DNA from: Escherichia phage vB_EcoM-G3G7 | Strand: one strand, 5' to 3' | DNA: 64,000 nucleotides | Sequence record: MZ234040.1 | Part shown: positions 213 to 51,197 of the stretch, in pieces | Numbering within the stretch: position 1 is the first letter of the stretch | Layout of the letters: each line of letters starts with the position of its first letter | Notes under the pieces: model-generated | The model's database searches: none | Seen by the model: only the letters and a program-made list of their open reading frames with translations | Told to the model about the DNA's origin: nothing | Made by a program: the position numbers and the translations under genes

Positions 213-3200
213 TTAGAATTTAAAATATTTACTAATTTTGCGAGCAATTTTAGTAAAGAAAGGAGTTTTCAATTCTTTAATTTCTTCACTCATTTCCTGA
301 ATAGCCTTAATTAAAAGAGCATTCACAGCAGAGTTAGAAATTGTCAGAACATCAGATCCATCAACTTCAACTTTAGATACAGCTTCCGGTAATTCCTTTT
401 CAAGGTCCTGAGCAATAATACCAACTTCACGTTTAATAACACTACGGTCTTTAATAGACTTAACTTTATCGTAAATATAAACTTTCAGTCGACATACTTT
501 TTCAAGTGCTCCGTTTTCTAGCTCTTTTTTATTAATCTTAAGACGACCATCGGAACGAATATACACATCGTTAAAGTTACCATTACCAGGAGAATAGAAA
601 GTACCGTCGTAATGAAATTCAAATACCGCGTTAGGGTGTCCAGCCGCTGGTGATGCCTCCGCAGATCCAACACGAATAATTGCTTGCCCCCAATTGTTAG
701 GGACACGACGAATACCAAGATCGACGGCAGTTACAAACCCTTGATTGGTGATTACACTTCTTCCTTTGAGAATCGGATAATAACAATCCTGTGAAACATA
801 ACCATGATCGACGAATATTGGTGCTTCTACTCGCCATTGGTTGCCCCAATCACCCGGTTGTCTAGCAATCCATCCAGAACCGTTAATGTGTACACGATCG
901 CGGTTAACGTTAACCATTGCGATATTTTGTGGATTTAGCGAAATCTCACCATTGTTTGTGATATGTACTGCCGCCTGAGTAGCATAGCTATAAAATGCTA
1001 GCGAATTATCAGCACCACCCTTACCAATATACCAGTTACCACTCCCGTCTACGTCACCACGAATATGCAAAGCATTACCAGCAGTTGTTGATAATACAAT
1101 AGAATCACCCGGACGTTTAATAATCAATCTACCTTCGGATTCAATTTCACCAAAAAATTTAGTCTTAATTGCACCAGTCGCTAAAGTACGTTCAGTGGAA
1201 AAATGAACGCCTTTGCTGTCTTCTAACTGAATAATGTTATCGCGCGCATTATTACTATCACCCCAATGATTAAACCGGAAATAATCACGTGATTGCTTAC
1301 CACCCGCTTCAAACGTCAGCGTACCTTTACTTAAATTAACATCACCGCTAAAGGTAGCAGCAAGAGAATCACGTTCTAATTTTAAAACGTTAGCACCACT
1401 AGTACCACCTAAAGTAACATCACCAGTTCTCAATTCATAACGGAAAGGTCTATTTGTATTATAGTTTCCATTTTGATCATCTTCGTTGGTGGAAAGAATA
1501 TAAAGATTCTCTCCATAAGTACGGAAAATTGTACCAAAATTTCCGGCATACATACGGAATGCATTAGATGAGCGAAATTTAACTTCTGTTTTAAAAGTGG
1601 TAGTGTTATTAAGGTTAACAGTAGAGTTAAAATTGGTAGGAGCACCGAAGTTAACTGCGCCATTAAAATCTTGTTGAGCTGTCCATGTGTGGCGACCATC
1701 TTCAAGAACAACACGGCGGACTGTGCAAGTTCTATTTCCAGAATTACCGAACACACGAACGACAAAATAACGGTAGTTTGTCTGGGATACAGTACCGCGC
1801 CAAACCTGAACAGTACGCCCTGTGCTAGTGTGTTCGCTAGGACCAACGGAAAACATAACCAGGTTTCCGTCAATCGTCCCCCAATCCATATTTGCTGGCA
1901 TATTCTTTATTTTGTTCAAAGGAACACTAAACATACTACCAGGGACAAAATCAAAGGTTTGCCAATCTAGCTCCGCTAATTGAGTTTTAATACCACCCAT
2001 ACCCAAAGTAATTGGCAAAGAGTAAGATGTATATACTTCGTTCCATGTACCCCACGCGCCACCGGTATATGCACGCTCAAAAATACGATCGCGAGTAGTT
2101 GCACCCGTTCCGGCAGTAGTAAATTTTTGGAAAATAGCACCGCCAGAAGCACGCTGTTTAACTTCCAGCAAACCAACAATAACAGTCGGCAAACCTTCAC
2201 CGGTAGGACAGTTAATAACGGCATCAGTGCCTAAAATATTATATAACCCAGGAGTTTTAAAATCATTCAGATCTCCATCATAGAAAGTCGCTGGTGTGAC
2301 ATTACCGACTTGTTGCCACGGTCCCCATTTAGGCGCGGAAGCATCCCACGCGGCAGCAAGACAACGAGTATATACAACACCAAATCTGGTTGTATATCTT
2401 TGTGTACGAGAATAGTTTCCACCTTCATATACTTCCAAAAGACCTTGAGCTGACGACCCCTTTTCTGGGAAATTTCTGTCAAAGGTAGCAATGGAATTTG
2501 AACTATTTCGCCACAAACCAAAGTGTTCAGCGCCTCCTAGATCATTAAGATCAATTGTTGTTGACAGTGGACGAGTACCGGATTGAATATTCTGGGAAAT
2601 TTCTGTCAAAGGTAGCAATGGAATTTGAACTATTTCGCCACAAACCAAAGTGTTCAGCGCCTCCTAGATCATTAAGATCAATTGTTGTTGACAGTGGACG
2701 AGTACCGGATTGAATATTTCGCCACACACTCCACGGACCATTTACTCCGTTCCATGTAGCAGTCAAGGAACGAATATAAACATTTCCGTATCTAGTTGTA
2801 TATCTCTGAGTACCAGCAAATTGACCGGCCACAAATACTTCTAGCACACCTACAGCATTTTCTTCTGGAAATTTATTTGCTGGTTGAGCGTTGGTTGAAG
2901 TTGCTTTCGACCAAACTCCAAGATATTCTTCAACAGGCCCATACGTATCTAAATTAGCATCAGTAGGTAATTCGCCATTATTTTTTATAAATGTTGTGCT
3001 ATTGACATTTATGTCAGATGGAGTTAGCGTGATATCTTTTGACCCATCAAAGGATATACCATTAATTTTTCGTGCTGTTTTTAATTTCGTTGCAGTTGCA
3101 GCGTTACCTGTTAAATTTCCAATTATATTTCCATTAACAGTTAAAGAACCATCAATTGTTCCTCCATATTTTAAACCTAATTCTATAACACTACCTGAGT

Positions 3201-3327
3201 CATCTTTTGTGAAAATTGTTTTATCTTTTAAGTTTATAGCCAATTCACCTTCGGCTAATACTGAAGCTGCAGGACGTTGACCTGCAATTTTGCTTCTTTT
3301 AAATTGTATTTGTTTTAAAGTAGCCAT
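213..3327 (-). CDS. 37: long tail fiber distal subunit gp37; reading frame interrupted by a 127-bp tandem duplication (ORF pieces 2551..3327 and 213..2648)
   Basis: Two adjacent minus-strand ORFs (258 aa and 811 aa) in different frames, both containing [43 protein letters not shown]; removing one 127-bp copy gives one 995-codon ORF; position between gene 36 and gene 38. Confidence 0.85.
2465..2718. repeat. perfect direct tandem duplication, 2 x 127 bp (2465-2591, 2592-2718)
   Basis: Base-by-base comparison of the two copies shows identity over 127 bp, with 2 bp of junction microhomology. Confidence 0.95.
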
Positions 3328-12924: not shown

Positions 12925-12954
12925 GGGGACCCTAGAGGTCCCCTTTTTTATTTT
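12925..12954 (+). terminator. intrinsic terminator after gene 32
   Basis: GGGGACC-CTAGA-GGTCCCC hairpin followed by TTTTTTATTTT. Confidence 0.85.
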
Positions 12955-12973
12955 AAAAATTTTTCACAAAACT

Positions 12974-13003
12974 GTTTACATCCTTGTTCTTCCATGGTAC
13001 TAT
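12974..13003 (+). promoter_or_regulatory. T4-type early promoter upstream of frd.3
   Basis: GTTTAC at 12974-12979, 18-nt spacer, TACTAT at 12998-13003 with upstream TGG. Confidence 0.55.
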
Positions 13004-17571: not shown

Positions 17572-19826
17572 TTAATGTTATCAAAAGTAGTGGTGTTTCT
17601 CAGAGCTTTGACCCGCAAAAAATTATTAAAGTTTTATCTTGGGCATCTGAGGGAACATCAGTAGATCCTTATGAATTATATGAAAATATTAAATCTTATC
17701 TCCGTGATGGAATGACAACTGATGATATTCAGACTATTGTCATTAAGGCCGCTGCGAATTCTATTTCGGTCGAAGAGCCTGATTATCAATATGTAGCTGC
17801 ACGTTGTCTAATGTTCGCTCTTCGTAAGCATGTTTATGGGCAGTATGAACCGCGTTCATTTATTGACCATATTTCTTACTGTGTAAATGAAGGTAAATAC
17901 GACCCTGAACTGTTGTCAAAATATTCAGCAGAAGAAATTACATTTTTAGAATCAAAAATTAAGCACGAACGGGATATGGAATTTACTTATTCCGGGGCGA
18001 TGCAATTAAAAGAAAAATATCTAGTTAAAGATAAAACCACTGGTCAAATTTATGAAACTCCACAGTTTGCATTTATGACTATTGGAATGGCCTTGCATCA
18101 AGATGAACCTGTTGATAGATTAAAACATGTTATCCGTTTTTATGAAGCGGTATCTACTCGACAGATTTCATTACCAACTCCTATTATGGCTGGTTGCCGT
18201 ACTCCAACTCGGCAGTTTAGTTCATGCGTTGTTATTGAGGCAGGCGATTCACTGAAGTCTATCAATAAGGCTTCTGCTTCAATTGTTGAATATATCTCTA
18301 AACGCGCTGGAATTGGTATTAACGTTGGTATGATTCGTGCTGAAGGTTCTAAGATTGGCATGGGTGAAGTACGCCATACTGGTGTTATTCCTTTTTGGAA
18401 ACATTTTCAGACTGCTGTTAAATCATGCTCACAGGGTGGAATTCGTGGCGGCGCTGCTACTGCTTATTATCCTATTTGGCATTTGGAAGTTGAAAATCTT
18501 CTTGTTTTGAAAAATAACAAAGGCGTAGAAGAAAACCGCATTCGTCATATGGATTATGGTGTTCAACTGAATGATTTGATGATGGAACGTTTTGGAAAGA
18601 ACGATTACATTACTTTGTTCAGTCCCCATGAAATGGGCGGAGAGCTTTATTATTCTTATTTTAAAGACCAAGACCGTTTCCGTGAATTATACGAAGCAGC
18701 AGAAAAAGACCCTAATATTCGTAAAAAGCGTATTAAAGCCCGTGAACTATTTGAATTGCTCATGACTGAACGCTCAGGAACAGCAAGAATTTATGTACAG
18801 TTCATTGATAATACGAATAACTATACTCCGTTTATTCGTGAAAAGGCACCTATTCGTCAGAGTAACTTGTGCTGTGAAATTGCTATTCCAACAAATGATG
18901 TGAATAGTCCTGATGCTGAAATTGGATTGTGTACTCTCTCTGCATTCGTACTAGATAATTTTGACTGGCAAGACCAAGATAAAATTAATGAATTGGCAGA
19001 AGTTCAAGTTCGTGCTCTTGATAATCTGTTGGATTACCAAGGATATCCAGTTCCTGAAGCAGAAAAAGCTAAAAAGCGTCGTAACCTCGGTGTAGGTGTT
19101 ACCAACTATGCAGCTTGGCTGGCAAGTAACTTTGCTTCTTATGAAGATGCTAATGATTTAACACATGAACTATTTGAGAGATTACAGTATGGACTCATTA
19201 AAGCATCCATTAAGCTCGCCAAAGAAAAAGGACCTTGCGAATATTATTCAGACACTCGTTGGTCTCGAGGCGAATTACCTATCGACTGGTACAATAAAAA
19301 GATTGACCAAATCGCAGCTCCAAAATACGTTTGTGACTGGTCGGCGCTGCGGGAAGACCTTAAGCTCTTTGGCATCCGTAATAGCACATTATCAGCACTT
19401 ATGCCATGTGAGTCATCTTCCCAAGTTTCTAACAGTACAAACGGTATCGAGCCTCCACGTGGACCAGTCTCTGTTAAAGAATCAAAAGAGGGTTCCTTTA
19501 ATCAAGTCGTGCCCAATATTGAGCATAACATAGACCTTTACGACTATACATGGAAATTAGCTAAGAAAGGTAATAAACCTTATCTTACGCAGGTAGCTAT
19601 TATGCTGAAATGGGTATGTCAATCAGCTTCAGCAAATACATACTATGACCCGCAGATTTTTCCAAAAGGAAAGGTTCCAATGTCAATAATGATTGATGAC
19701 ATGCTATACGGATGGTATTATGGCATTAAAAATTTCTATTATCATAATACCCGTGATGGTTCTGGTACTGATGATTATGAAATAGAAACTCCAAAAGCTG
19801 AAGATTGTTCATCCTGTAAATTATGA
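17562..19826 (+). CDS. nrdA: aerobic ribonucleotide reductase large subunit
   Basis: 754-aa ORF MQLINVIKSSGVSQSFDPQKIIKVLSWASEG... matches T4 NrdA (ATP-cone and catalytic domain). Confidence 0.95.
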   Translation: MQLINVIKSSGVSQSFDPQKIIKVLSWASEGTSVDPYELYENIKSYLRDGMTTDDIQTIVIKAAANSISVEEPDYQYVAARCLMFALRKHVYGQYEPRSFIDHISYCVNEGKYDPELLSKYSAEEITFLESKIKHERDMEFTYSGAMQLKEKYLVKDKTTGQIYETPQFAFMTIGMALHQDEPVDRLKHVIRFYEAVSTRQISLPTPIMAGCRTPTRQFSSCVVIEAGDSLKSINKASASIVEYISKRAGIGINVGMIRAEGSKIGMGEVRHTGVIPFWKHFQTAVKSCSQGGIRGGAATAYYPIWHLEVENLLVLKNNKGVEENRIRHMDYGVQLNDLMMERFGKNDYITLFSPHEMGGELYYSYFKDQDRFRELYEAAEKDPNIRKKRIKARELFELLMTERSGTARIYVQFIDNTNNYTPFIREKAPIRQSNLCCEIAIPTNDVNSPDAEIGLCTLSAFVLDNFDWQDQDKINELAEVQVRALDNLLDYQGYPVPEAEKAKKRRNLGVGVTNYAAWLASNFASYEDANDLTHELFERLQYGLIKASIKLAKEKGPCEYYSDTRWSRGELPIDWYNKKIDQIAAPKYVCDWSALREDLKLFGIRNSTLSALMPCESSSQVSNSTNGIEPPRGPVSVKESKEGSFNQVVPNIEHNIDLYDYTWKLAKKGNKPYLTQVAIMLKWVCQSASANTYYDPQIFPKGKVPMSIMIDDMLYGWYYGIKNFYYHNTRDGSGTDDYEIETPKAEDCSSCKL

Positions 19827-21083: not shown

Positions 21084-22671
<1,588 letters not shown>

Positions 22672-22674
22672 GCT

Positions 22675-22704
22675 GTTTACAAGCCCCTCGTGTTGTGTTA
22701 TAGT
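22675..22704 (+). promoter_or_regulatory. T4-type early promoter upstream of alc; part of a 52-bp repeat also present at 38622-38673
   Basis: GTTTAC at 22675-22680, 18-nt spacer, TATAGT at 22699-22704. Confidence 0.6.
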
Positions 22705-22735
22705 AGTCTTACTGACATAACATGAGGACTTTATG

Positions 22736-23239
22736 ATGGATTTGCAGCTTATTACTACTGAAATGGTCGTTGAAGCATACGGTGATACTACAGATGGGAT
22801 TTCTGTATTCAAAGGAAATCGTCGAGTTGGATATATCACCGATCTTAAGAAAGATTTAGCTAAGCAAGTCAAGCGGAAAACGACCATTAAAGAATATCGA
22901 AATCGTCGTCTTGAGCAAGCCCGTGATATGCTTCCTGATGCGGTTGAGGAGATGAAAGTCTTTTTAGAAAATCAGCTTGCGAAATATGATTGCGATGTGT
23001 TCATTAATCAGACTCAACCTAATGTTCATATTAACAACTGTAAATGCTATATCATCGTTAATCCTTTAACGGGAAAACATCGTCTTGGAATTAGTAATCC
23101 AAATCGTAGCGCATCGGATATGGCAGAAGATGTTGCGGCGTGCTTTAAAATTTCTAAATCTCCGGCTGAACATCATATTTTAATTAACGGTCTTTCTCAA
23201 GACGATATTATAGAGGTTATTAAAACTTTATGCAATTAA
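22736..23239 (+). CDS. alc: Alc (host transcription shutoff; blocks elongation on cytosine-containing DNA)
   Basis: 167-aa ORF MDLQLITTEMVVEAYGDTTDGISVFKGNRRVGYIT... matches T4 Alc. Confidence 0.9.
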   Translation: MDLQLITTEMVVEAYGDTTDGISVFKGNRRVGYITDLKKDLAKQVKRKTTIKEYRNRRLEQARDMLPDAVEEMKVFLENQLAKYDCDVFINQTQPNVHINNCKCYIIVNPLTGKHRLGISNPNRSASDMAEDVAACFKISKSPAEHHILINGLSQDDIIEVIKTLCN

Positions 23240-23583
23240 GTAATACGACAGCAGGTTTGCTATTAATTGTAATTGCATTAGGCGGAACTTCTTTAATTTT
23301 AAAAAATAAAATTGAAAGATTAGAAACGTCTGTTGTAGAAATTACAAAAACGGCCAATGAAAACGCCTTAGCATTAAATAATTTGCGAATTCAGTATAAT
23401 TATATTGATGCGATGAATAATAAAAATCGTGAGGCGATTGCTGCTATTGAGCGTGAAAATGAAAAACTGCGCAAAGATGCAAAGAAGGCGGATGTGGTGG
23501 CTCGTAAGCCAGGATTGGTTGAAAAACAAATCAACAACTCCTTCAACAAGTTCGCAGAAGACATCCAGGACCTTTCTAAATGA
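23230..23583 (+). CDS. pseT.3: inner-membrane spanin subunit (i-spanin; pseT.3-like)
   Basis: 117-aa ORF with N-terminal transmembrane helix (TAGLLLIVIALGGTSLIL) and coiled-coil-like remainder; T4 spanin position. Confidence 0.75.
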   Translation: MQLSNTTAGLLLIVIALGGTSLILKNKIERLETSVVEITKTANENALALNNLRIQYNYIDAMNNKNREAIAAIERENEKLRKDAKKADVVARKPGLVEKQINNSFNKFAEDIQDLSK

Positions 23584-23879
23584 TTAAACTATCAGCAGTA
23601 ATATTATCTATTGGTCTTCTAGTTGGTTGTTCGACAAAGCCTCTAGAAGTAAAGAAAGAAACAGTTCATCCTAATTGGCCTGTACAGATAAAGTCATATG
23701 ATGAAGCTAAACTATCTTGGCAAGTTAAAGTTATTGATGGTAAAGCTTGGGTCGGTATGCCATTTGAAGATTCCCAGGAATTTCGTATTTGGCTTAATGA
23801 TGTAAAACGATATGTACATGACCAAAAAACTATGATATGTTATTATCGTCAAGAGTTAAAAGAGGATAAATGTAAATGA
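23580..23879 (+). CDS. pseT.2: outer-membrane lipoprotein spanin subunit (o-spanin; pseT.2-like)
   Basis: 99-aa ORF with lipobox LLVGC|S and conserved Cys residues; ATGA overlap with the i-spanin stop. Confidence 0.75.
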   Translation: MIKLSAVILSIGLLVGCSTKPLEVKKETVHPNWPVQIKSYDEAKLSWQVKVIDGKAWVGMPFEDSQEFRIWLNDVKRYVHDQKTMICYYRQELKEDKCK

Positions 23880-24102
23880 TTTCATGGCATCAATTTGAAC
23901 ATCTCAAAGGATTGATTTATGAATCCGAGATGGCTGCAATGATTTATGGACGCCAGATTCAGCGGTTAGAATCTTTACCTCCAACTAATGATGTTTTATT
24001 AGCTCAATCCCGTGCTAATCTCAAAAATGAATATCAAAATAAGTGGGGTAAAGCATCTAAAGACCTGCATGATTATATTCAATCATTAGTTGAGAAAAAT
24101 AA

Positions 24103-29638: not shown

Positions 29639-29667
29639 GGACTCCTTCGGGAGTCCTTTTTTATTTT
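29639..29667 (+). terminator. intrinsic terminator
   Basis: GGACTCC-TTCG-GGAGTCC hairpin followed by TTTTTTATTTT. Confidence 0.85.
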
Positions 29668-29686
29668 CCAAAGATTGCATAAAGTT

Positions 29687-29716
29687 GTTTACAGTATGGT
29701 TCCTTTGTGATAGTAT
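29687..29716 (+). promoter_or_regulatory. T4-type early promoter
   Basis: GTTTAC at 29687-29692, 18-nt spacer with TGTGA, TAGTAT at 29711-29716. Confidence 0.55.
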
Positions 29717-29743
29717 TATCTTACACAAACAAAGGAGAATAAA

Positions 29744-30076
29744 ATGAAAACGATTAATCTGAACGCTGCAGTTAAAACTAAATGCTTCAATGGTAAATAT
29801 GATGAAACTATGTGGTTCTTAATGGCAGTTGAAGGTGATATTATTGAAGTAGAAACAACAGAAGGTATGGGAACAGATTTCACCTTTACAATTCAAGTTC
29901 ATAATTTCTTTACTGGTTGGATTTATGAATTGAATACAGTAATCGTTGGAAAAATTGAACAAAATGAATTAGGTGAATGGTATTATGTTACAGCTCGCCA
30001 ACGTGCCGAACGCTTAATTGAGAAGATGAAAAAAGTTGGTAAACTTGACATGCAGCATTGGAAAGTAGTAAAATAA
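29744..30076 (+). CDS. early protein, unknown function (110 aa)
   Basis: AAGGAGAATAAAATG context. Confidence 0.6.
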   Translation: MKTINLNAAVKTKCFNGKYDETMWFLMAVEGDIIEVETTEGMGTDFTFTIQVHNFFTGWIYELNTVIVGKIEQNELGEWYYVTARQRAERLIEKMKKVGKLDMQHWKVVK

Positions 30077-34475: not shown

Positions 34476-34505
34476 ATAAATAGAATAAACACTAGAGAGG
34501 CTATG

Positions 34506-36560
34506 ATGGAACTTATTACAGAATTATTTGACGAAGATACTACTCTTCCGATTACAAACTTAAATCCAAAGAAGAAAATACCGCAAATTTTTTCAGTTCA
34601 TGTTGATGATGCAATTGAACAACCAGGCTTTCGTTTATGTACCTATACATCTGGAGGTGATACTAATCGCGATTTAAAGATGGGCGATAAAATGATGCAT
34701 ATTGTTCCTTTTACATTAACTGCTAAAGGTTCAATTGCTAAATTAAAAGGTCTTGGTCCAAGCCCAATTAATTATATCAATTCAGTTTTTACTGTTGCGA
34801 TGCAAACAATGCGTCAGTATAAAATTGATGCCTGTATGCTTCGTATTCTTAAGTCTAAAACCGCTGGTCAAGCTCGACAAATTCAAGTTATTGCTGATAG
34901 ACTTATCCGTAGTCGTTCAGGTGGCAGATACGTCCTTCTTAAGGAACTCTGGGATTACGATAAAAAGTATGCATATATTCTTATACATCGCAAAAATGTA
35001 TCACTAGAAGACATTCCGGGAGTTCCGGAAATTAGTACTGAGCTCTTTACTAAAGTTGAATCGAAGGTCGGTGATGTTTATATCAATAAAGATACTGGAG
35101 CTCAAGTAACTAAAAATGAGGCAATTGCAGCATCTATTGCGCAAGAAAATGATAAACGTTCTGACCAAGCTGTAATCGTTAAAGTTAAAATTTCCCGTAG
35201 AGCAATTGCGCAAAGTCAATCATTGGAATCTTCTAGATTTGAAACGCCGATGTTTCAAAAATTTGAGGCTTCAGCAGCAGAATTAAATAAACCTGCTGAC
35301 GCTCCTTTAATTTCTGACGCTAATGAATTAACTGTTATTTCTACTTCAGGATTTGCATTAGAGAATGCTCTTAGTAGTGTTACAGCTGGAATGGCATTCA
35401 GAGAAGCTTCTATAATTCCTGAAGATAAAGAATCTGATGTTAATGCAGAAATAAAAAATAAAGCTTTAGAAAGATTACGAAAAGAATCTATTACTTCAAT
35501 AAAAACTTTAGAAACTATTGCTTCTATAGTTGATGATACTTTAGAAAAATATAAAGGTGCTTGGTTAGAAAGAAACATTAACAAGCATTCGCATTTAAAT
35601 CAAGATGCTGCGAATGAGTTAGTACAAAATTCTTGGAATGCAATAAAAACAAAGATTATTCGAAGAGAATTGCGTGGATATGCTCTTACCGCTGGATGGT
35701 CACTACATCCTATAGTCGAAAATAAAGATTCATCTAAATACACACCGGCACAAAAACGCGGAATTCGTGAATACGTAAGTTCAGGATATGTAGACATAAA
35801 TAACGCTCTTTTGGGATTATATAATCCAGATGAGCGTACAAGTATTTTGACAGCATCTGATATAGAAAAAGCTATTGATAATTTAGATTCTGCCTTTAAA
35901 AATGGTGAACGATTACCAAAAGGTATTACTTTGTATCGTTCACAACGAATGTTACCTTCAATATATGAAGCACTGGTAAAAAATCGAGTTTTTTATTTTA
36001 GAAATTTTGTGTCAACATCATTATATCCAAATATTTTTGGTACCTGGATGACTGATTCATCTGTGGGTGTTTTACCAGACGAAAAGCGTTTAAGTGTTTC
36101 TATTGATAAAACTGATGAAGGACTAGTAAATTCTAGCGATAATTTAGTTGGAATTGGATGGGTTATTACTGGGGCTGATAAAGTCAATGTTGTTTTACCA
36201 GGTGGAAGTTTAGCACCTTCAAATGAAATGGAAGTCATTTTGCCACGTGGATTAATGGTCAAAGTTAATAAAATAACCGATGCATCTTACAATGATGGAA
36301 CAGTTAAAACTAACAACAAGCTTATTCAAGCTGAAGTTATGACCACAGAAGAACTCACCGAATCGGTAATTTATGACGGTGACCGTCTAATGGAAACCGG
36401 CGAAGTAGTTACAATGACAGGTGATATTGAAATAGAAGACAGAGTTGATTTTGCATCATTTGTTTCATCAAATGTTAAACAGAAAGTAGAATCATCTCTT
36501 GGAATTATTGCGTCTTGTATAGATATTGCAAACATGCCTTACAAGTTCGTTCAAGGATAA
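34506..36560 (+). CDS. alt: Alt, virion-packaged mono-ADP-ribosyltransferase (modifies host RNA polymerase)
   Basis: About 684-aa ORF MELITELFDEDTTLPITNLNPKKKIPQIFSVHVDDAIEQPGFRLCTYTSGGDTNRDLKMGDK...; ART catalytic signature R (LYRSQ), STS (FVSTSL), E-x-E (EMEVILPRG). Confidence 0.9.
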   Translation: MELITELFDEDTTLPITNLNPKKKIPQIFSVHVDDAIEQPGFRLCTYTSGGDTNRDLKMGDKMMHIVPFTLTAKGSIAKLKGLGPSPINYINSVFTVAMQTMRQYKIDACMLRILKSKTAGQARQIQVIADRLIRSRSGGRYVLLKELWDYDKKYAYILIHRKNVSLEDIPGVPEISTELFTKVESKVGDVYINKDTGAQVTKNEAIAASIAQENDKRSDQAVIVKVKISRRAIAQSQSLESSRFETPMFQKFEASAAELNKPADAPLISDANELTVISTSGFALENALSSVTAGMAFREASIIPEDKESDVNAEIKNKALERLRKESITSIKTLETIASIVDDTLEKYKGAWLERNINKHSHLNQDAANELVQNSWNAIKTKIIRRELRGYALTAGWSLHPIVENKDSSKYTPAQKRGIREYVSSGYVDINNALLGLYNPDERTSILTASDIEKAIDNLDSAFKNGERLPKGITLYRSQRMLPSIYEALVKNRVFYFRNFVSTSLYPNIFGTWMTDSSVGVLPDEKRLSVSIDKTDEGLVNSSDNLVGIGWVITGADKVNVVLPGGSLAPSNEMEVILPRGLMVKVNKITDASYNDGTVKTNNKLIQAEVMTTEELTESVIYDGDRLMETGEVVTMTGDIEIEDRVDFASFVSSNVKQKVESSLGIIASCIDIANMPYKFVQG

Positions 36561-36563
36561 ATC

Positions 36564-38621
36564 ATGGAACTTATTACAGAATTATTTGACGGCGCTTCGG
36601 CGCCGGTTGTTAACTTAAATCCTAAGCATAAAATACCACAAATTTTTGCTATTCAAGCCGGCGAAGAAAGCGTGCTTCCTGGATTTAGATTTTGTACATA
36701 CACCTCTGGTGGTGATACGAATAAAAACGTTAAGCCAGGCGATAAAATGATGCATATCGTAATGATAGGTGTTAATGAGAAACTATCATTAGTTAAGCTT
36801 AAAAACTTGGGTGGAAATCCAATTGGTGTCATTAATGCCGTTTTTGATACTGCTCTTCAAACAATGAAACAGTATAAAATCGACGCATGCCTATTCCGCG
36901 TACTAAAAAGTAAAACAAATGGCGCAGCTCGTCAAATGCAAGTTATTGCTGACCGTTTAGTACGTACTAAAGGAGCAGGTCGATATGTTCTTTTAAAGGA
37001 AATCTGGGACTATGATAAGAAATATGCATATATTATGGTTTACCGTAAAAATGCCAATTTAGAAGACATTCCAGGTGTACCTCCTATTTCAACTGAGTTA
37101 TTCACAAAAGTTGAATCAAAGGTCGGTGATGTTTATGTAGACGTTAAAACAGGAAATGCTGTTCCTAAAGCTGTCGCTGTTGCTGCTTCTATTGCTTTAG
37201 AAAATGATAAGCGCACGGACCAAGCTGTTATTCAGAAAACTAAAATCAGTCGTCGATTAGCAGCACAAGCTCAATATTCTACTGTTGATGCTTCACTTCA
37301 GGGTGATAGCTTTGCTGCCAAGAAATATCAAGAGTTTGAATCTAAAGTTCCGGTATATAAAGCAGAAGGTCCGATGAACTCTGGCGTTATCCAGATTGGT
37401 TCAAACTTCAGCAAAGGAGCTATCGGTGGTATGAGAAGTGCTTCTCGTTTTAAATCTAACGATTATGAACTAGAAAGCTTCCGAAATCATATTGCATTGG
37501 CCCATGCACGTTTACGTGATCCATCTATCAAGTTGCAGAGCGATATAACATATCAAGGTTCTCAAGAATATTTAAAGAATAAAGAATTCTTTGATTATAA
37601 AACTGATAAAATTTTAAGCGATCTTGCTGACATTAATATTTCTAATAGCTTTGATGTTATTAAGAAAATTATCAATGATTTGGTTAAAGGTTCTAAAGCC
37701 ACGCCAGATGAAAAGACAGCTATTATTCAATTTGTAATGAATGGCATTTATAAATTGATTAATGAATCTGCTGCCCAGGCATATGAATACGCAAGCACCG
37801 AAGTAGCTCCAAAAGGACTGACTCAGGCTGAATCTGATGTAATTGAAGATTATTGTGCAGATTCATATGTTGAAATGAACTCGTTCCTTTTGGGTAAACC
37901 AGATTCTACCCGTGAAGAATACATGGAACGAGCTATTAAGCACATCGAGACGTTAGATTCTGCCTTTGCCAAAGGATCAGTTCTTCCTCCAGGAACTACA
38001 CTTTACCGTGGGCAAGAAGTTACCTTTAAAACTTTGCGTCATAACATTGAAAATAAAATGTTCTATTTCAAGAACTTCGTATCCACATCGCTTAAACCAA
38101 ATATCTTCGGTGAGCATGGTAAAAACTATATGGCTCTAGATGATTCTGGCGCAGTATTTTCTGGCGAAGGAGAAGGTTCCGTTGATACAGAAGATTTGAT
38201 GCATATGGGTAGTCATTCTACATATGCTAATGAAGATGCTGAAACTAGCGTGGGTATGGTAATTAAAGGAGCTGAGCGAATCAAAGTTATCGTTCCAGGT
38301 CATTTATCAGGATTTCCATCAGAAGCTGAAGTTATTCTACCACGTGGAATTTTACTGAAGATTAATAAAGTAAGTACGTACTTTATGAAAGAAACTGCTT
38401 ATAACAAGTATCTAATCGAAGGTACAATCGTTCCTCCTTCTGAACAATTAGAAGAATCAGTATATGATGGAGACCATCTAATGGAAACTGGTGAAGTTCG
38501 TCCAATGGCTGGATTTAATCAATTCCTTGTAGAAGAATCAAAAGAAGAGGAAAATGAAGTTTCTCAAATCTTGGCTTCTTTGGTTAACATCAACGGAATG
38601 TCTAAAAAGTTCAAAATGTAG
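36564..38621 (+). CDS. Alt paralog (second Alt-like ADP-ribosyltransferase)
   Basis: 685-aa ORF sharing the N-terminal MELITELFD... and C-terminal catalytic region (LYRGQ, FVSTSL, EAEVILPRG) with Alt, but with a divergent middle region. Confidence 0.85.
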   Translation: MELITELFDGASAPVVNLNPKHKIPQIFAIQAGEESVLPGFRFCTYTSGGDTNKNVKPGDKMMHIVMIGVNEKLSLVKLKNLGGNPIGVINAVFDTALQTMKQYKIDACLFRVLKSKTNGAARQMQVIADRLVRTKGAGRYVLLKEIWDYDKKYAYIMVYRKNANLEDIPGVPPISTELFTKVESKVGDVYVDVKTGNAVPKAVAVAASIALENDKRTDQAVIQKTKISRRLAAQAQYSTVDASLQGDSFAAKKYQEFESKVPVYKAEGPMNSGVIQIGSNFSKGAIGGMRSASRFKSNDYELESFRNHIALAHARLRDPSIKLQSDITYQGSQEYLKNKEFFDYKTDKILSDLADINISNSFDVIKKIINDLVKGSKATPDEKTAIIQFVMNGIYKLINESAAQAYEYASTEVAPKGLTQAESDVIEDYCADSYVEMNSFLLGKPDSTREEYMERAIKHIETLDSAFAKGSVLPPGTTLYRGQEVTFKTLRHNIENKMFYFKNFVSTSLKPNIFGEHGKNYMALDDSGAVFSGEGEGSVDTEDLMHMGSHSTYANEDAETSVGMVIKGAERIKVIVPGHLSGFPSEAEVILPRGILLKINKVSTYFMKETAYNKYLIEGTIVPPSEQLEESVYDGDHLMETGEVRPMAGFNQFLVEESKEEENEVSQILASLVNINGMSKKFKM

Positions 38622-38650
38622 TTTACAAGTCCCTCGTGTTGTGTTATAGT
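38621..38650 (+). promoter_or_regulatory. T4-type early promoter; part of a 52-bp repeat also present at 22675-22726
   Basis: GTTTAC at 38621-38626, 18-nt spacer, TATAGT at 38645-38650. Confidence 0.55.
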
Positions 38651-38681
38651 AGTCTTACTGACATAACATGAGGAACACAAA

Positions 38682-38972
38682 ATGAAATCTTCTTTGCGCT
38701 TTTTAGGTCAAGAACTTGTAGTTGAAGGAGTTATTCCTGCTGATAATGCTTTTAATGAAGCAGTTTACGATGAATTTATCAAAATTTTTGGAACAGATAA
38801 AAAGTTCGGAATTTTTCCTTCTGAAAATTTTTCAAAGCCAGAACAGACTGAAAGTATTTTCCAAGGTGTAGTAACAGGTAAATTTGAGTCAGAAGCTCCG
38901 GTAAAAATTGAAGTTTATATTGAAGACAGTTTAGTTGCTTCAGTTTCTGCTTTCATTTCATTCCGTAAATAA
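38682..38972 (+). CDS. small protein (96 aa), unknown function
   Basis: ORF preceded by CATGAGGA SD context; followed by a bidirectional terminator. Confidence 0.55.
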   Translation: MKSSLRFLGQELVVEGVIPADNAFNEAVYDEFIKIFGTDKKFGIFPSENFSKPEQTESIFQGVVTGKFESEAPVKIEVYIEDSLVASVSAFISFRK

Positions 38973-38978
38973 AAATAT

Positions 38979-38996
38979 GGGGACCGAAAGGTCCCC
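38979..38996. terminator. bidirectional hairpin terminator between the early (+) block and late gene 54 (-)
   Basis: GGGGACC-GAAA-GGTCCCC flanked by A/T runs on both sides. Confidence 0.75.
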
Positions 38997-39000
38997 ATTG

Positions 39001-49778: not shown

Positions 49779-51197
49779 ATGACTTTTACAGTTGATATAA
49801 CTCCTAAAACACCGACAGGGGTTATTGATGAAACTAAGCAGTTTACTGCTACACCCAGTGGTGAAACTGGAGGCGGAACTATTACATATGCTTGGACTGT
49901 AGATGATGCTCCACAAGATGGAGCTGAAGCAACTTTTGATTATGTATTAAAAGGACCTGCTGGACAAAAGACTATTAAAGTAGTTGCAACAAATACAGTT
50001 CCAGATACTGATGCTGAAACAGCAGAAGCTACTACAACTATCACAGTTCAAAATAAGACACAAACAACTACTTTAGCTGTAACTCCTGGTAGCCCTGATG
50101 CTGGAGTGATTGGAACTCCAATTGAATTTACCGCTGCCTTAGCTTCACAGCCATCAGGTGCAAACGCTACGTATCAATGGCACGTTGACGGTTCTCCTGT
50201 AGACGAAGCAACTGACGCTACATTCAATTACACTCCTGACACAAGCGGAGTTAAAAAAATCAAGTGTGTAGCTCAAGTAACTGCGGCAGATTATGATGCA
50301 CTAAGCGTTACTTCTAATGAAGTATCATTGACTGTTAATAAAAAGGAGCAGACAACTACTTTGGCAGTAACTCCTGATAGTCCTCCAGCGGGAGTAATCG
50401 GAACCCCAGTTCAATTTACTGCTGCCTTAGCTTCTCAACCTGATGGAGCGTCTGCTACGTATCAGTGGTATGTAGATGATTCACAAGTTGGTGGAGAAAC
50501 TAACTCTACATTTAGCTATACTCCAACTACAAGTGGAGTAAAAAGAATTAAATGCGTAGCCCAAGTAACTGCTGAAAATTACAATGAAAAGGAAGTTACT
50601 TCTAATGAAGTATCATTGACAGTTAATAAGAAGACAATGAATCCACAGGTTACATTGACTCCTCCTTCTATTAATGTTCAGCAAGATGCTTCGGCTACAT
50701 TTACGGCTAATGTTACGGGTGCTCCAGAAGAAGCACAAATTACTTACTCATGGAAGAAAGATTCTTCTCCTGTAGAAGGGTCAACTAACATATATACTGT
50801 CGATACCTCATCTGTTGGAAGTCAAACTATTGAAGTTACTGCTGTCGTTACTGCAACTGATTACGATAGCAAAACTATTACAGCAGAAGGTCAAGTTCAG
50901 GTAACTGATAAAGTTGCTCCAGAACCAGAAGGTGAACTACCTTATGTTCATCCTCTTCCACATCGTACTTCAGCTTATATCTGGTGCGGTTGGTGGGTTA
51001 TGGATGAAATCCAAAAAATGACCGAAGAAGGTAAAGATTGGAAAACTGAAGATCCAGACAGTAAATACTACCTGCATCGTTACACTCTTCAGAAGATGAT
51101 GAAAGACTATCCAGAAGTTGATGTTCAAGAATCACGCAATGGATACATCATTCATAAAACTGCTTTAGAAACTGGTATCATCTATACCTATCCATAA
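49779..51197 (+). CDS. hoc: Hoc, highly immunogenic outer capsid protein, with four Ig-like domains
   Basis: 472-aa ORF MTFTVDITPKTPTGVIDETKQFTATPSGETGGGTITYAW...; C-terminal capsid-binding region ...ELPYVHPLPHRTSAYIWCGWWVMDEI...; internal diverged tandem repeat of one Ig-like unit. Confidence 0.9.
   Translation: MTFTVDITPKTPTGVIDETKQFTATPSGETGGGTITYAWTVDDAPQDGAEATFDYVLKGPAGQKTIKVVATNTVPDTDAETAEATTTITVQNKTQTTTLAVTPGSPDAGVIGTPIEFTAALASQPSGANATYQWHVDGSPVDEATDATFNYTPDTSGVKKIKCVAQVTAADYDALSVTSNEVSLTVNKKEQTTTLAVTPDSPPAGVIGTPVQFTAALASQPDGASATYQWYVDDSQVGGETNSTFSYTPTTSGVKRIKCVAQVTAENYNEKEVTSNEVSLTVNKKTMNPQVTLTPPSINVQQDASATFTANVTGAPEEAQITYSWKKDSSPVEGSTNIYTVDTSSVGSQTIEVTAVVTATDYDSKTITAEGQVQVTDKVAPEPEGELPYVHPLPHRTSAYIWCGWWVMDEIQKMTEEGKDWKTEDPDSKYYLHRYTLQKMMKDYPEVDVQESRNGYIIHKTALETGIIYTYP

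Follow-up and report, generated by a model that had tools for sequence, protein, structure and literature searches.

A near-identical early promoter unit precedes alc and the alt.-3 homolog

We analyzed a 64,000-nt stretch of the genome of Escherichia phage vB_EcoM-G3G7 (MZ234040.1; the whole stretch is hereafter called the window), focusing on a short direct repeat that lies upstream of alc, which encodes an inhibitor of host transcription, and again upstream of a homolog of the T4 gene alt.-3. The window comes from a Tequatrovirus, a T4-like myovirus. Its positions 22000–24000 are 100% identical to vB_EcoM-CHD2BS1 and its relatives, and 95–99% identical to about 490 other phages. A first-pass annotation of the window had described a 52-bp repeat, at 22675–22726 and 38622–38673, as two copies about 16 kb apart that differ by one mismatch, each containing −35/−10 elements and a Shine-Dalgarno sequence (SD) and preceding alc or a 96-amino-acid open reading frame (ORF) after the second Alt paralog. 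The repeat, its two loci, its single mismatch, its motifs and its downstream genes all stand, while its size and coordinates were off by 1–2 nt. The window contains this unit, which is 54 nt long, exactly twice, in + orientation both times and at a distance of 15,946 nt. The loci are organized as follows (hairpin coordinates are given below):

21547–22671, + strand: rnlA (RNA ligase 1), upstream of copy A (ORF list, Pfam RNA_lig_T4_1 and T4_Rnl1_C, annotation of relatives)
22675–22728, + strand: copy A, promoter-hairpin-SD cassette with predicted hairpin (alc promoter; sequence match)
22676–22704, + strand: copy A promoter (−35 TTTACA at 22676–22681, TG at 22696–22697, −10 TATAGT at 22699–22704)
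22733–23239, + strand: alc (host transcription inhibitor; Pfam ALC, E 3e-90)
34503–36560, + strand: Alt paralog 1 (ADP-ribosyltransferase; ORF list, annotation of relatives, Pfam)
36564–38621, + strand: Alt paralog 2, intact here (ORF list, Pfam)
38621–38674, + strand: copy B, cassette of the same kind (alt.-3 promoter; sequence match)
38622–38650, + strand: copy B promoter (−35 at 38622–38627, −10 TATAGT at 38645–38650)
38682–38972, + strand: alt.-3 homolog, 96 amino acids, DUF5498 (ORF list, T4 annotation, Pfam)
38977–38998, no strand assigned: bidirectional terminator-like hairpin between alt.-3 and the convergent late gene 54 (terminator scan)

The two copies are identical at 53 of 54 positions; at the one exception, unit position 10, copy A has C (22684) and copy B has T (38630). 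In 100 dinucleotide shuffles, the 54-mer had no match. The edges of the repeat are sharp, running from the G of GTTTAC to the last A of GAGGA, and the flanks of the two copies are unrelated. No dispersed exact repeat in the window is longer than a 44-nt stretch within the unit. The further sites that resemble early promoters (9088, 12974, 13706, 25995, 29687, and 30079) share only 16–39 of 54 positions with one another or with the repeat copies.

Both copies consist of TTTACA, a 17-nt spacer, TG, and TATAGT, with 10 of 12 matches to the consensus, which is the early σ70 pattern described for T4 (PMC2988021; PMC1524935), followed by a leader that ends in the SD GAGGA. Transcription is predicted to start at A22711 in copy A and A38657 in copy B, as judged from promoter geometry only, by setting the −10 hexamer at −12 to −7 (PMC1524935).

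The copies are fitted tightly between their neighboring genes. The start coordinate of rnlA was taken from the 1125-nt T4 gene; its TAA stop occupies 22669–22671, and copy A begins 3 nt further on and ends 4 nt before the first ATG of alc (in the T4 annotation, alc starts at the second ATG, whose counterpart here is 22736). The TAG stop of Alt paralog 2 ends on a G that is also base 1 of copy B, and 7 nt separate the end of copy B from the alt.-3 homolog, whose early transcription unit ends at the hairpin at 38977–38998. According to T4 omics data, which we carried over to this phage, alc and alt.-3 are both classed as early RNA and early protein, rnlA as early RNA and late protein, and alt as middle RNA and late protein (PMC9697503 supplements). 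By these classes, a later-acting gene gives way to an early one at each copy.

We also noted that tandem full-length Alt paralogs are found in this phage, T2, EcNP1, and Pinarejo, and that the second has decayed to the small ORFs alt.-1 and alt.-2 in T4 and pSe_SNUABM_01. At the DNA level, the likeness of the two paralogs is confined to short conserved blocks, for example 34503–34533 versus 36561–36591 (97%).

The promoter spacer is predicted to pair with the Shine-Dalgarno sequence

When folded as sense RNA, each unit is predicted to form an imperfect 18-bp hairpin, a feature that had not been noticed in the first-pass annotation. Unit positions 12–25 (CCUCGUGUUGUGUU), which comprise the spacer and the first base of the −10 element, pair with positions 40–53 (GACAUAACAUGAGG), which comprise the leader and the SD, and a 4-bp apical stem stands on top of this spacer:leader helix:

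22686–22727, + strand: copy A hairpin (5′ arm 22686–22699; apical stem 22702–22705/22710–22713; 3′ arm 22714–22727; SD GAGGA 22724–22728)
38632–38673, + strand: copy B hairpin (5′ arm 38632–38645; 3′ arm 38660–38673; SD GAGGA 38670–38674)

The predicted minimum free energy (MFE) is −22.3 kcal/mol (z = −3.5) for copy A and −23.0 kcal/mol (z = −3.8) for copy B, and the GAGG of the SD is paired in both the MFE and the centroid predictions of the two copies. The spacer:leader duplex of copy A by itself has a predicted energy of −19.8 kcal/mol (p = 0.0005). The sense RNA is 6–7 kcal/mol more stable than the antisense RNA (−22.0 versus −14.8 kcal/mol for copy A) because three of the pairs are G·U. 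The 5′ arm ends within the −10 element, and the predicted start site falls in the apical part of the hairpin. RNA that begins at +1 is predicted to be unstructured (−4.8 kcal/mol, z = −0.7). Pairing of the spacer with the SD is probably the reason why the repeat ends exactly at the SD.

A terminator scan found no terminator-like site, U-tract, or upstream stem-loop at either copy, and nothing terminator-like that separates rnlA from alc or alt from alt.-3; read-through into both early genes is therefore plausible. An Rfam search of 22400–23000 gave no match at E ≤ 1. By reading of the sequence, the RegB target GGAG is absent from the SD of the Tequatrovirus unit (GAGGAC, GAGGAA).

A further feature of the leader is an AUG within the conserved motif ACAUGAGGA, which opens a mini-ORF of four or five codons (22722–22736 and 38668–38685). 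In both copies, this mini-ORF closes with a UGA that shares bases with the main start codon (AUGA), and the alt.-3 leaders of other genera show the same. No SD lies 5′ of the mini-ORF AUG, and the mini-ORF probably follows from the conserved spacing between SD and AUG.

Spacer:SD complementarity is kept with different sequences in other lineages

A blastn search with the 54-mer found 995 places in 499 phage records, including T4 (NC_000866). This amounts to about two copies per genome. The T4 copies differ at one position, which is not the position of the mismatch in the window. The copies are identical in phage Pinarejo and one IMG/VR contig, and they differ at 4–8 positions in T2, EcNP1, and others. 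The distance between them ranges from 13.2 to 15.9 kb and varies with the intervening gene content.

Fifteen distinct Tequatrovirus 54-mers were compared, and pairing is kept in 98.1% of their stem cells. One-sided, wobble-compatible changes affect four pairs (G·U to A-U, C-G to U·G, G·U to G-C, and U·G to U-A), and both sides have changed in a compensatory way at C15-G50, which is U-A in the alt.-3 copy of vB_ECOLIGBLB0003. This variation is consistent with the predicted structure but does not constitute independent support for it.

We then extended the comparison to the upstream regions of both genes, alc and alt.-3, in other T4-like lineages. A cross-genus MAFFT alignment left the stems out of register; hence each sequence was subjected to a duplex test against 2000 spacer shuffles instead. 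In eight other lineages, namely Gelderlandvirus, Karamvirus, Jiaodavirus, Winklervirus, Roskildevirus, Bragavirus, a JS10/Bp7-like contig (L008), and VR5 (L016), the segment of the alc promoter right after the −35 element is complementary to the leader and SD. The sequences of the arms differ by lineage (for example, UCUCCGUUUAGUU/AACUAAACGGAGA, UCCUCAUCAG/CUGAUGAGGA, and AACCUCUCAUUUUU/GAAAAUGAGAGGUU). The predicted spacer:leader duplexes range from −11 to −23.5 kcal/mol (p = 0.0005–0.01), with the SD inside the duplex in every case, and the whole elements have MFEs of −15 to −28 kcal/mol (z = −3 to −7). Including Tequatrovirus, the complementarity is kept with different sequences in at least nine lineages, which argues that it is not incidental. 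A covariance model built from the Tequatrovirus copies recovered the alc elements in five other lineages, and also matched the same architecture 5′ of another gene in Gelderlandvirus and Karamvirus; its alignment was mixed with unrelated hits and was not used to count pairs.

The arrangement is not uniform. In Aeromonas phage 44RR2.8t, an SD hairpin is present, with its 5′ arm at or after the −10 element and not in the spacer. In Gaprivervirus-like phages, a partial duplicate of the 5′ part of alc ("alca") precedes alc (L013, 1156–1384; L025, 1–190), and a promoter-like element is found before this fragment.

A subset of early promoters shares the design

The complete genome of Tequatrovirus ES12 (MN508614.1; L042–L045) contains 35 early-promoter modules, all on one strand. 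A spacer:SD duplex reaches significance (≤ −11 kcal/mol, p ≤ 0.014) in six of them: those of alc, alt.-3, regB, 30.8, and two ORFs of 166 and 175 amino acids, neither of which had a Pfam hit. The duplexes of the remaining 29 modules lie between −2 and −9 kcal/mol. At regB (Pfam REGB_T4), the spacer UUUCCUCUUGACUG is complementary to the leader and SD CAGUUAAGAGGAG (−20.7 kcal/mol, p = 0.002). Expression of regB, like that of alc, is limited to the first minutes of infection and is under post-transcriptional control (PMC3014915).

The counterpart of the ES12 30.8 promoter in the window lies at 29687–29743, 5′ of the ORF 29744–30076 (Pfam Phage_30_8), where the spacer UUCCUUUGUG pairs with the leader and SD CACAAACAAAGGAG (−11.3 kcal/mol, p about 0.01). 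It has the design of the alc cassette in an unrelated sequence. Strong hairpins of −16 to −19 kcal/mol (z = −2.5 to −4.3) are also predicted at three other + strand promoters of the window (13706, 25995, and 30079), where they center on the −10 element and exclude the SD; GGUAGAG...CUCUACC and GGUACAGG...CCUGUACC are two of them. These hairpins resemble the subclass of promoter-early stem-loop (PeSL) cassettes in phages RB49 and phi1 in which a stem-loop covers the −10 element. In addition, two 62-nt segments that are 71% identical (12942–13003 and 29655–29716) each contain a terminator T-run, an A/T-rich stretch, and a GTTTACA promoter; they are canonical terminator-promoter (PeSL-like) junctions.

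The alc and alt.-3 loci may have exchanged short tracts

Outside Tequatrovirus, the alt.-3 promoters are of another type. They have in common a small hairpin in the spacer (CAC-AAGGAAG-GUG), their spacer:leader duplexes reach only −5 to −8 kcal/mol, and pairing extends to the SD in one of five (L008). Since the alt.-3 promoters elsewhere differ in type while the alc promoter keeps its architecture, the comparison suggests that an alc-type cassette was copied over the ancestral alt.-3 promoter in an ancestor of Tequatrovirus; this is the direction and timing that we infer. The first-pass annotation had raised the idea of a transposed promoter-leader module, which gains support from the same comparison.

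A second exchange is visible in VR5 (KP007359.1). The 5′ half of its alc element is alc-type, and the last 29 nt (CCTTACACAAACATGAGGAGAACATTATG) are identical to its own alt.-3 leader (2081–2140 versus 18650–18710); the JS10/Bp7-like relatives of VR5 keep a distinct alc leader. This patch is an independent, short conversion tract between the alc and alt.-3 loci, in the direction opposite to that in Tequatrovirus. In identity of the two elements within a genome, Tequatrovirus (0.89) and VR5 (0.87) stand above a background of 0.60–0.77. We also considered homogenization of the two elements in Mosigvirus and rejected it, since their identity (0.77) falls within the background.

Within Tequatrovirus, both paralogs carry the same alleles at unit positions 16 (G/A), 27 (T/C, the latter giving TACAGT), and 32 (G/A), and the rare TACAGT variant is present in both copies of one genome. 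This sharing hints at occasional conversion, with mutational hot spots as an alternative.

The first-pass annotation had also viewed the repeat as a substrate for deletion or duplication of the intervening 16 kb. We searched for synthetic deletion and duplication junctions (150-nt flank, unit, 150-nt flank), and found neither in any of the 499 genomes, each of which matches as two separate halves. The interval holds pseT, cd, 31, rIII, 30, and alt. Genes 30 (DNA ligase) and 31 (co-chaperonin) are essential in T4, and a 16-kb duplication would exceed the headful terminal redundancy of T4 (roughly 3%). The data therefore speak against such rearrangements; because of the missing junctions, the essential genes, and the limit on redundancy, exchange between the copies is visible solely as short conversion tracts.

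A model for expression from the own early promoter only

We favor, with moderate confidence, a model in which each copy is an early promoter with an anti-SD spacer, the hairpin restricts expression to this promoter, and one ectopic copying event explains why the two copies are nearly identical. The cassette would act as a strong early promoter for host σ70, its 17-nt spacer doubling as an anti-SD sequence for the very gene that it drives. Transcripts from this promoter would start approximately 7 nt after TATAGT, inside the hairpin, and would lack the 5′ arm. With a 13-nt unstructured lead-in and a free SD, they would allow alc and alt.-3 to be translated right after infection. RNA that reads through from rnlA (copy A) or alt (copy B), depending on its existence and amount, would carry both arms and could fold into the 18-bp hairpin of about −22 kcal/mol, which would bury the SD. 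Middle or late read-through RNA would thus yield little of the downstream gene product, and the gene would be expressed only from its own early promoter. The origin of the pair is best explained by a single event of ectopic recombination or gene conversion in the ancestor of Tequatrovirus, in which the alc-type cassette would have overwritten the alt.-3 promoter that was there before. Thereafter the copies would have changed slowly, held by constraint, perhaps with a later conversion now and then.

Several observations weigh against this model. The alc promoters of Mosigvirus and Acinetobacter phage Ac42 have no spacer:SD pairing, the alc hairpin of Kanagawavirus covers the −10 element and stops short of the SD, and Gaprivervirus-like phages have a full-length alc with no promoter of its own (no GTTTAC); the feature is therefore dispensable. 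Within Tequatrovirus, where there is little diversity, the covariation falls short of significance, being matched by 98 of 500 shuffles; five stem cells are unpaired, and a frequent variant, TATAAT, breaks up the apical stem. The start site is placed by promoter geometry, and both the hairpin and its effect on translation are predictions. Furthermore, T4 alt.-3 RNA is classed as early, hence there may be little read-through RNA to silence. Lastly, the TGTG of the extended −10 element and the ACA-rich starts of leaders may be two independent consensus motifs that happen to pair in part.

The hairpin could also serve transcription attenuation or RNA processing instead. A PeSL-type attenuator or RNA-end element would pause or terminate polymerase arriving from rnlA or alt, or form a stable 3′ end or processing site, and would so insulate the transcription units instead of gating translation. 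PeSL stem-loops have been placed between or over the −35 and −10 boxes, and one reduced lacZ expression like a strong terminator (PMC2839356); moreover, T4 alt.-3 RNA is early though alt RNA is middle, as would be expected if little RNA crosses the junction. We nevertheless consider this explanation rather unlikely, given that the stem has no U-tract (copy B continues with AACACAAAAUG), that the terminator scan was empty at both copies, and that the trait conserved across genera is pairing of an anti-SD with an SD that is always in the 3′ arm, which a terminator would not need. A more modest explanation is that of a plain strong promoter, duplicated recently or kept alike by selection for strength, with an incidental hairpin and with the repeat as a substrate for recombination across 16 kb. 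The promoter and SD motifs are present, the polymorphisms shared by the paralogs hint at exchange, and a length of 54 bp comes close to the least homology that recombination in T4 requires. The lack of recombinant junctions in 499 genomes, the essential genes 30 and 31 in the interval, and the conservation of spacer:SD complementarity in at least nine lineages make it improbable.

That the inverted repeat acts at the DNA level, as a cruciform or as the binding site of a dimeric regulator governing when the promoter fires, seems very improbable to us. In its favor, the arms in several genera form perfect Watson-Crick inverted repeats on either side of the −10 element. In Tequatrovirus, however, 3 of 18 pairs are G·U and the structure is weak with DNA parameters (−10 kcal/mol) and asymmetric between the strands; the arms are also wholly different between genera, unlike a protein operator, and the partner that is conserved is the SD. 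An assembly artefact, or membership in a larger duplicated block, is practically ruled out, since the two copies recur, flanked by unrelated sequence, in T4 and about 499 independent genomes.

More tentatively, and with a lower expectation of being right than for the two loci themselves, we suggest that T4-like phages have a class of "self-insulating" early cassettes, in which an anti-SD spacer would keep the gene silent on middle and late read-through RNA. Such 54-bp cassettes, which would serve genes of strictly early expression (alc, regB, alt.-3, 30.8, and others) and be conserved by covariation across genera, could be copied between loci through ectopic recombination and carry transcriptional and translational timing together. 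If true, this would explain how Alc and RegB are confined to the first minutes of infection with their genes lying in long overlapping units that are transcribed later too. Through a 54-bp unit, one gene could then pass its promoter timing together with its translational insulation to another, and phage engineering would gain a compact, portable part. If the hairpin is inert, the finding reduces to a known pair of near-identical T4 early promoters.

Other repeats in the window

Two further repeats were noted, the first of which is unrelated to the 54-nt unit. Gene 37 (long tail fibre distal subunit) contains a perfect 127-nt tandem duplication (2463–2716, − strand). As 127 is not a multiple of 3, the gene is split into overlapping ORFs (213–2648 and 2551–3327). 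The segment is single-copy in all 83 related records, including MZ234027, which is identical to the window over 22000–24000; a 521-nt query aligned to 394 nt in these records. Either a frameshifting mutation has hit this host-range gene, or the duplication is an artefact of assembly. The second repeat lies at 50043–50618, within the ORF 49779–51197 (+ strand, 472 amino acids), and consists of 288 nt (96 codons) in tandem at 74% identity; by its position, this ORF is probably hoc with an extra Ig-like domain.

Comparison with known systems

The two units are most directly compared with the early σ70 promoters of T4, and indeed the two sites are the upstream regions of T4's own alc and alt.-3. 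In common with that set, they have a GTTTAC −35 element, a 17-nt spacer, TGn, a TAnnnT −10 element, and a short leader to the SD, and they lie directly 5′ of early genes. They differ in that the alc/alt.-3 pair is 98–100% identical over 54 nt that include the spacer and leader, whereas the others share the consensus only (16–39 of 54 positions), and in that the A/T-rich upstream region lies outside the repeat.

The near-identity of the pair is reminiscent of concerted evolution by ectopic gene conversion of short dispersed repeats. Paralogs within a genome are more alike than orthologous promoters across genera, and polymorphic sites are shared. However, the tract is very short (29–54 nt), and one ancient event plus constraint fits as well as ongoing conversion.

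The PeSL cassettes of T4-type phages (Arbiol 2010, PMC2839356; Comeau 2014, PMC4122927) likewise combine a compact early promoter, a stem-loop, an SD, and a start codon, are repeated in the genome, and have been proposed to move or recombine as modules. Both copies described here have the compact promoter with its SD and start codon, as well as a stable predicted stem-loop associated with the promoter, and in RB49 and phi1 the stem-loop may overlap the −35/−10 boxes. In PST and T4, by contrast, PeSL stem-loops are upstream of the promoter and are read as terminators; the alc and alt.-3 units have no upstream stem-loop or U-tract, neither has a G+C-rich stem followed by a U-run, and their stem pairs the spacer with the SD. 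The alc and alt.-3 copies are also 13–16 kb apart across essential genes and do not flank an ORFan, and no indel, gene swap, or mini-circle was associated with them (0 of 499 genomes with a recombinant junction).

A literature search that did not reach older T4 works found no paper on a promoter hairpin of alc, alt.-3, or regB, and these genes are not among the examples in the 2010 review (PMC3014915). That review describes the hairpins of T4 e, soc, 49, and I-TevI, in which the SD is held in a helix in transcripts from upstream, a late promoter lies inside the hairpin, and the genes' own transcripts have no 5′ arm and are translatable. The alc and alt.-3 units resemble them in the predicted burial of the SD in RNA initiated upstream, and in a promoter in the 5′ part that would give transcripts without the 5′ arm. 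They differ in that the internal promoter of e, soc, 49, and I-TevI is late (TATAAATA, a motif absent from the 54-nt unit) and early expression is blocked, whereas the alc and alt.-3 promoter is an early σ70 promoter, inverting the logic. If the model holds, the units would be an early-only counterpart to these late-only hairpins. As predicted, the alc/alt.-3 element combines the ideas of the PeSL cassette and the SD-sequestering hairpin with inverted timing, an early promoter being placed inside the hairpin that would bury the SD.

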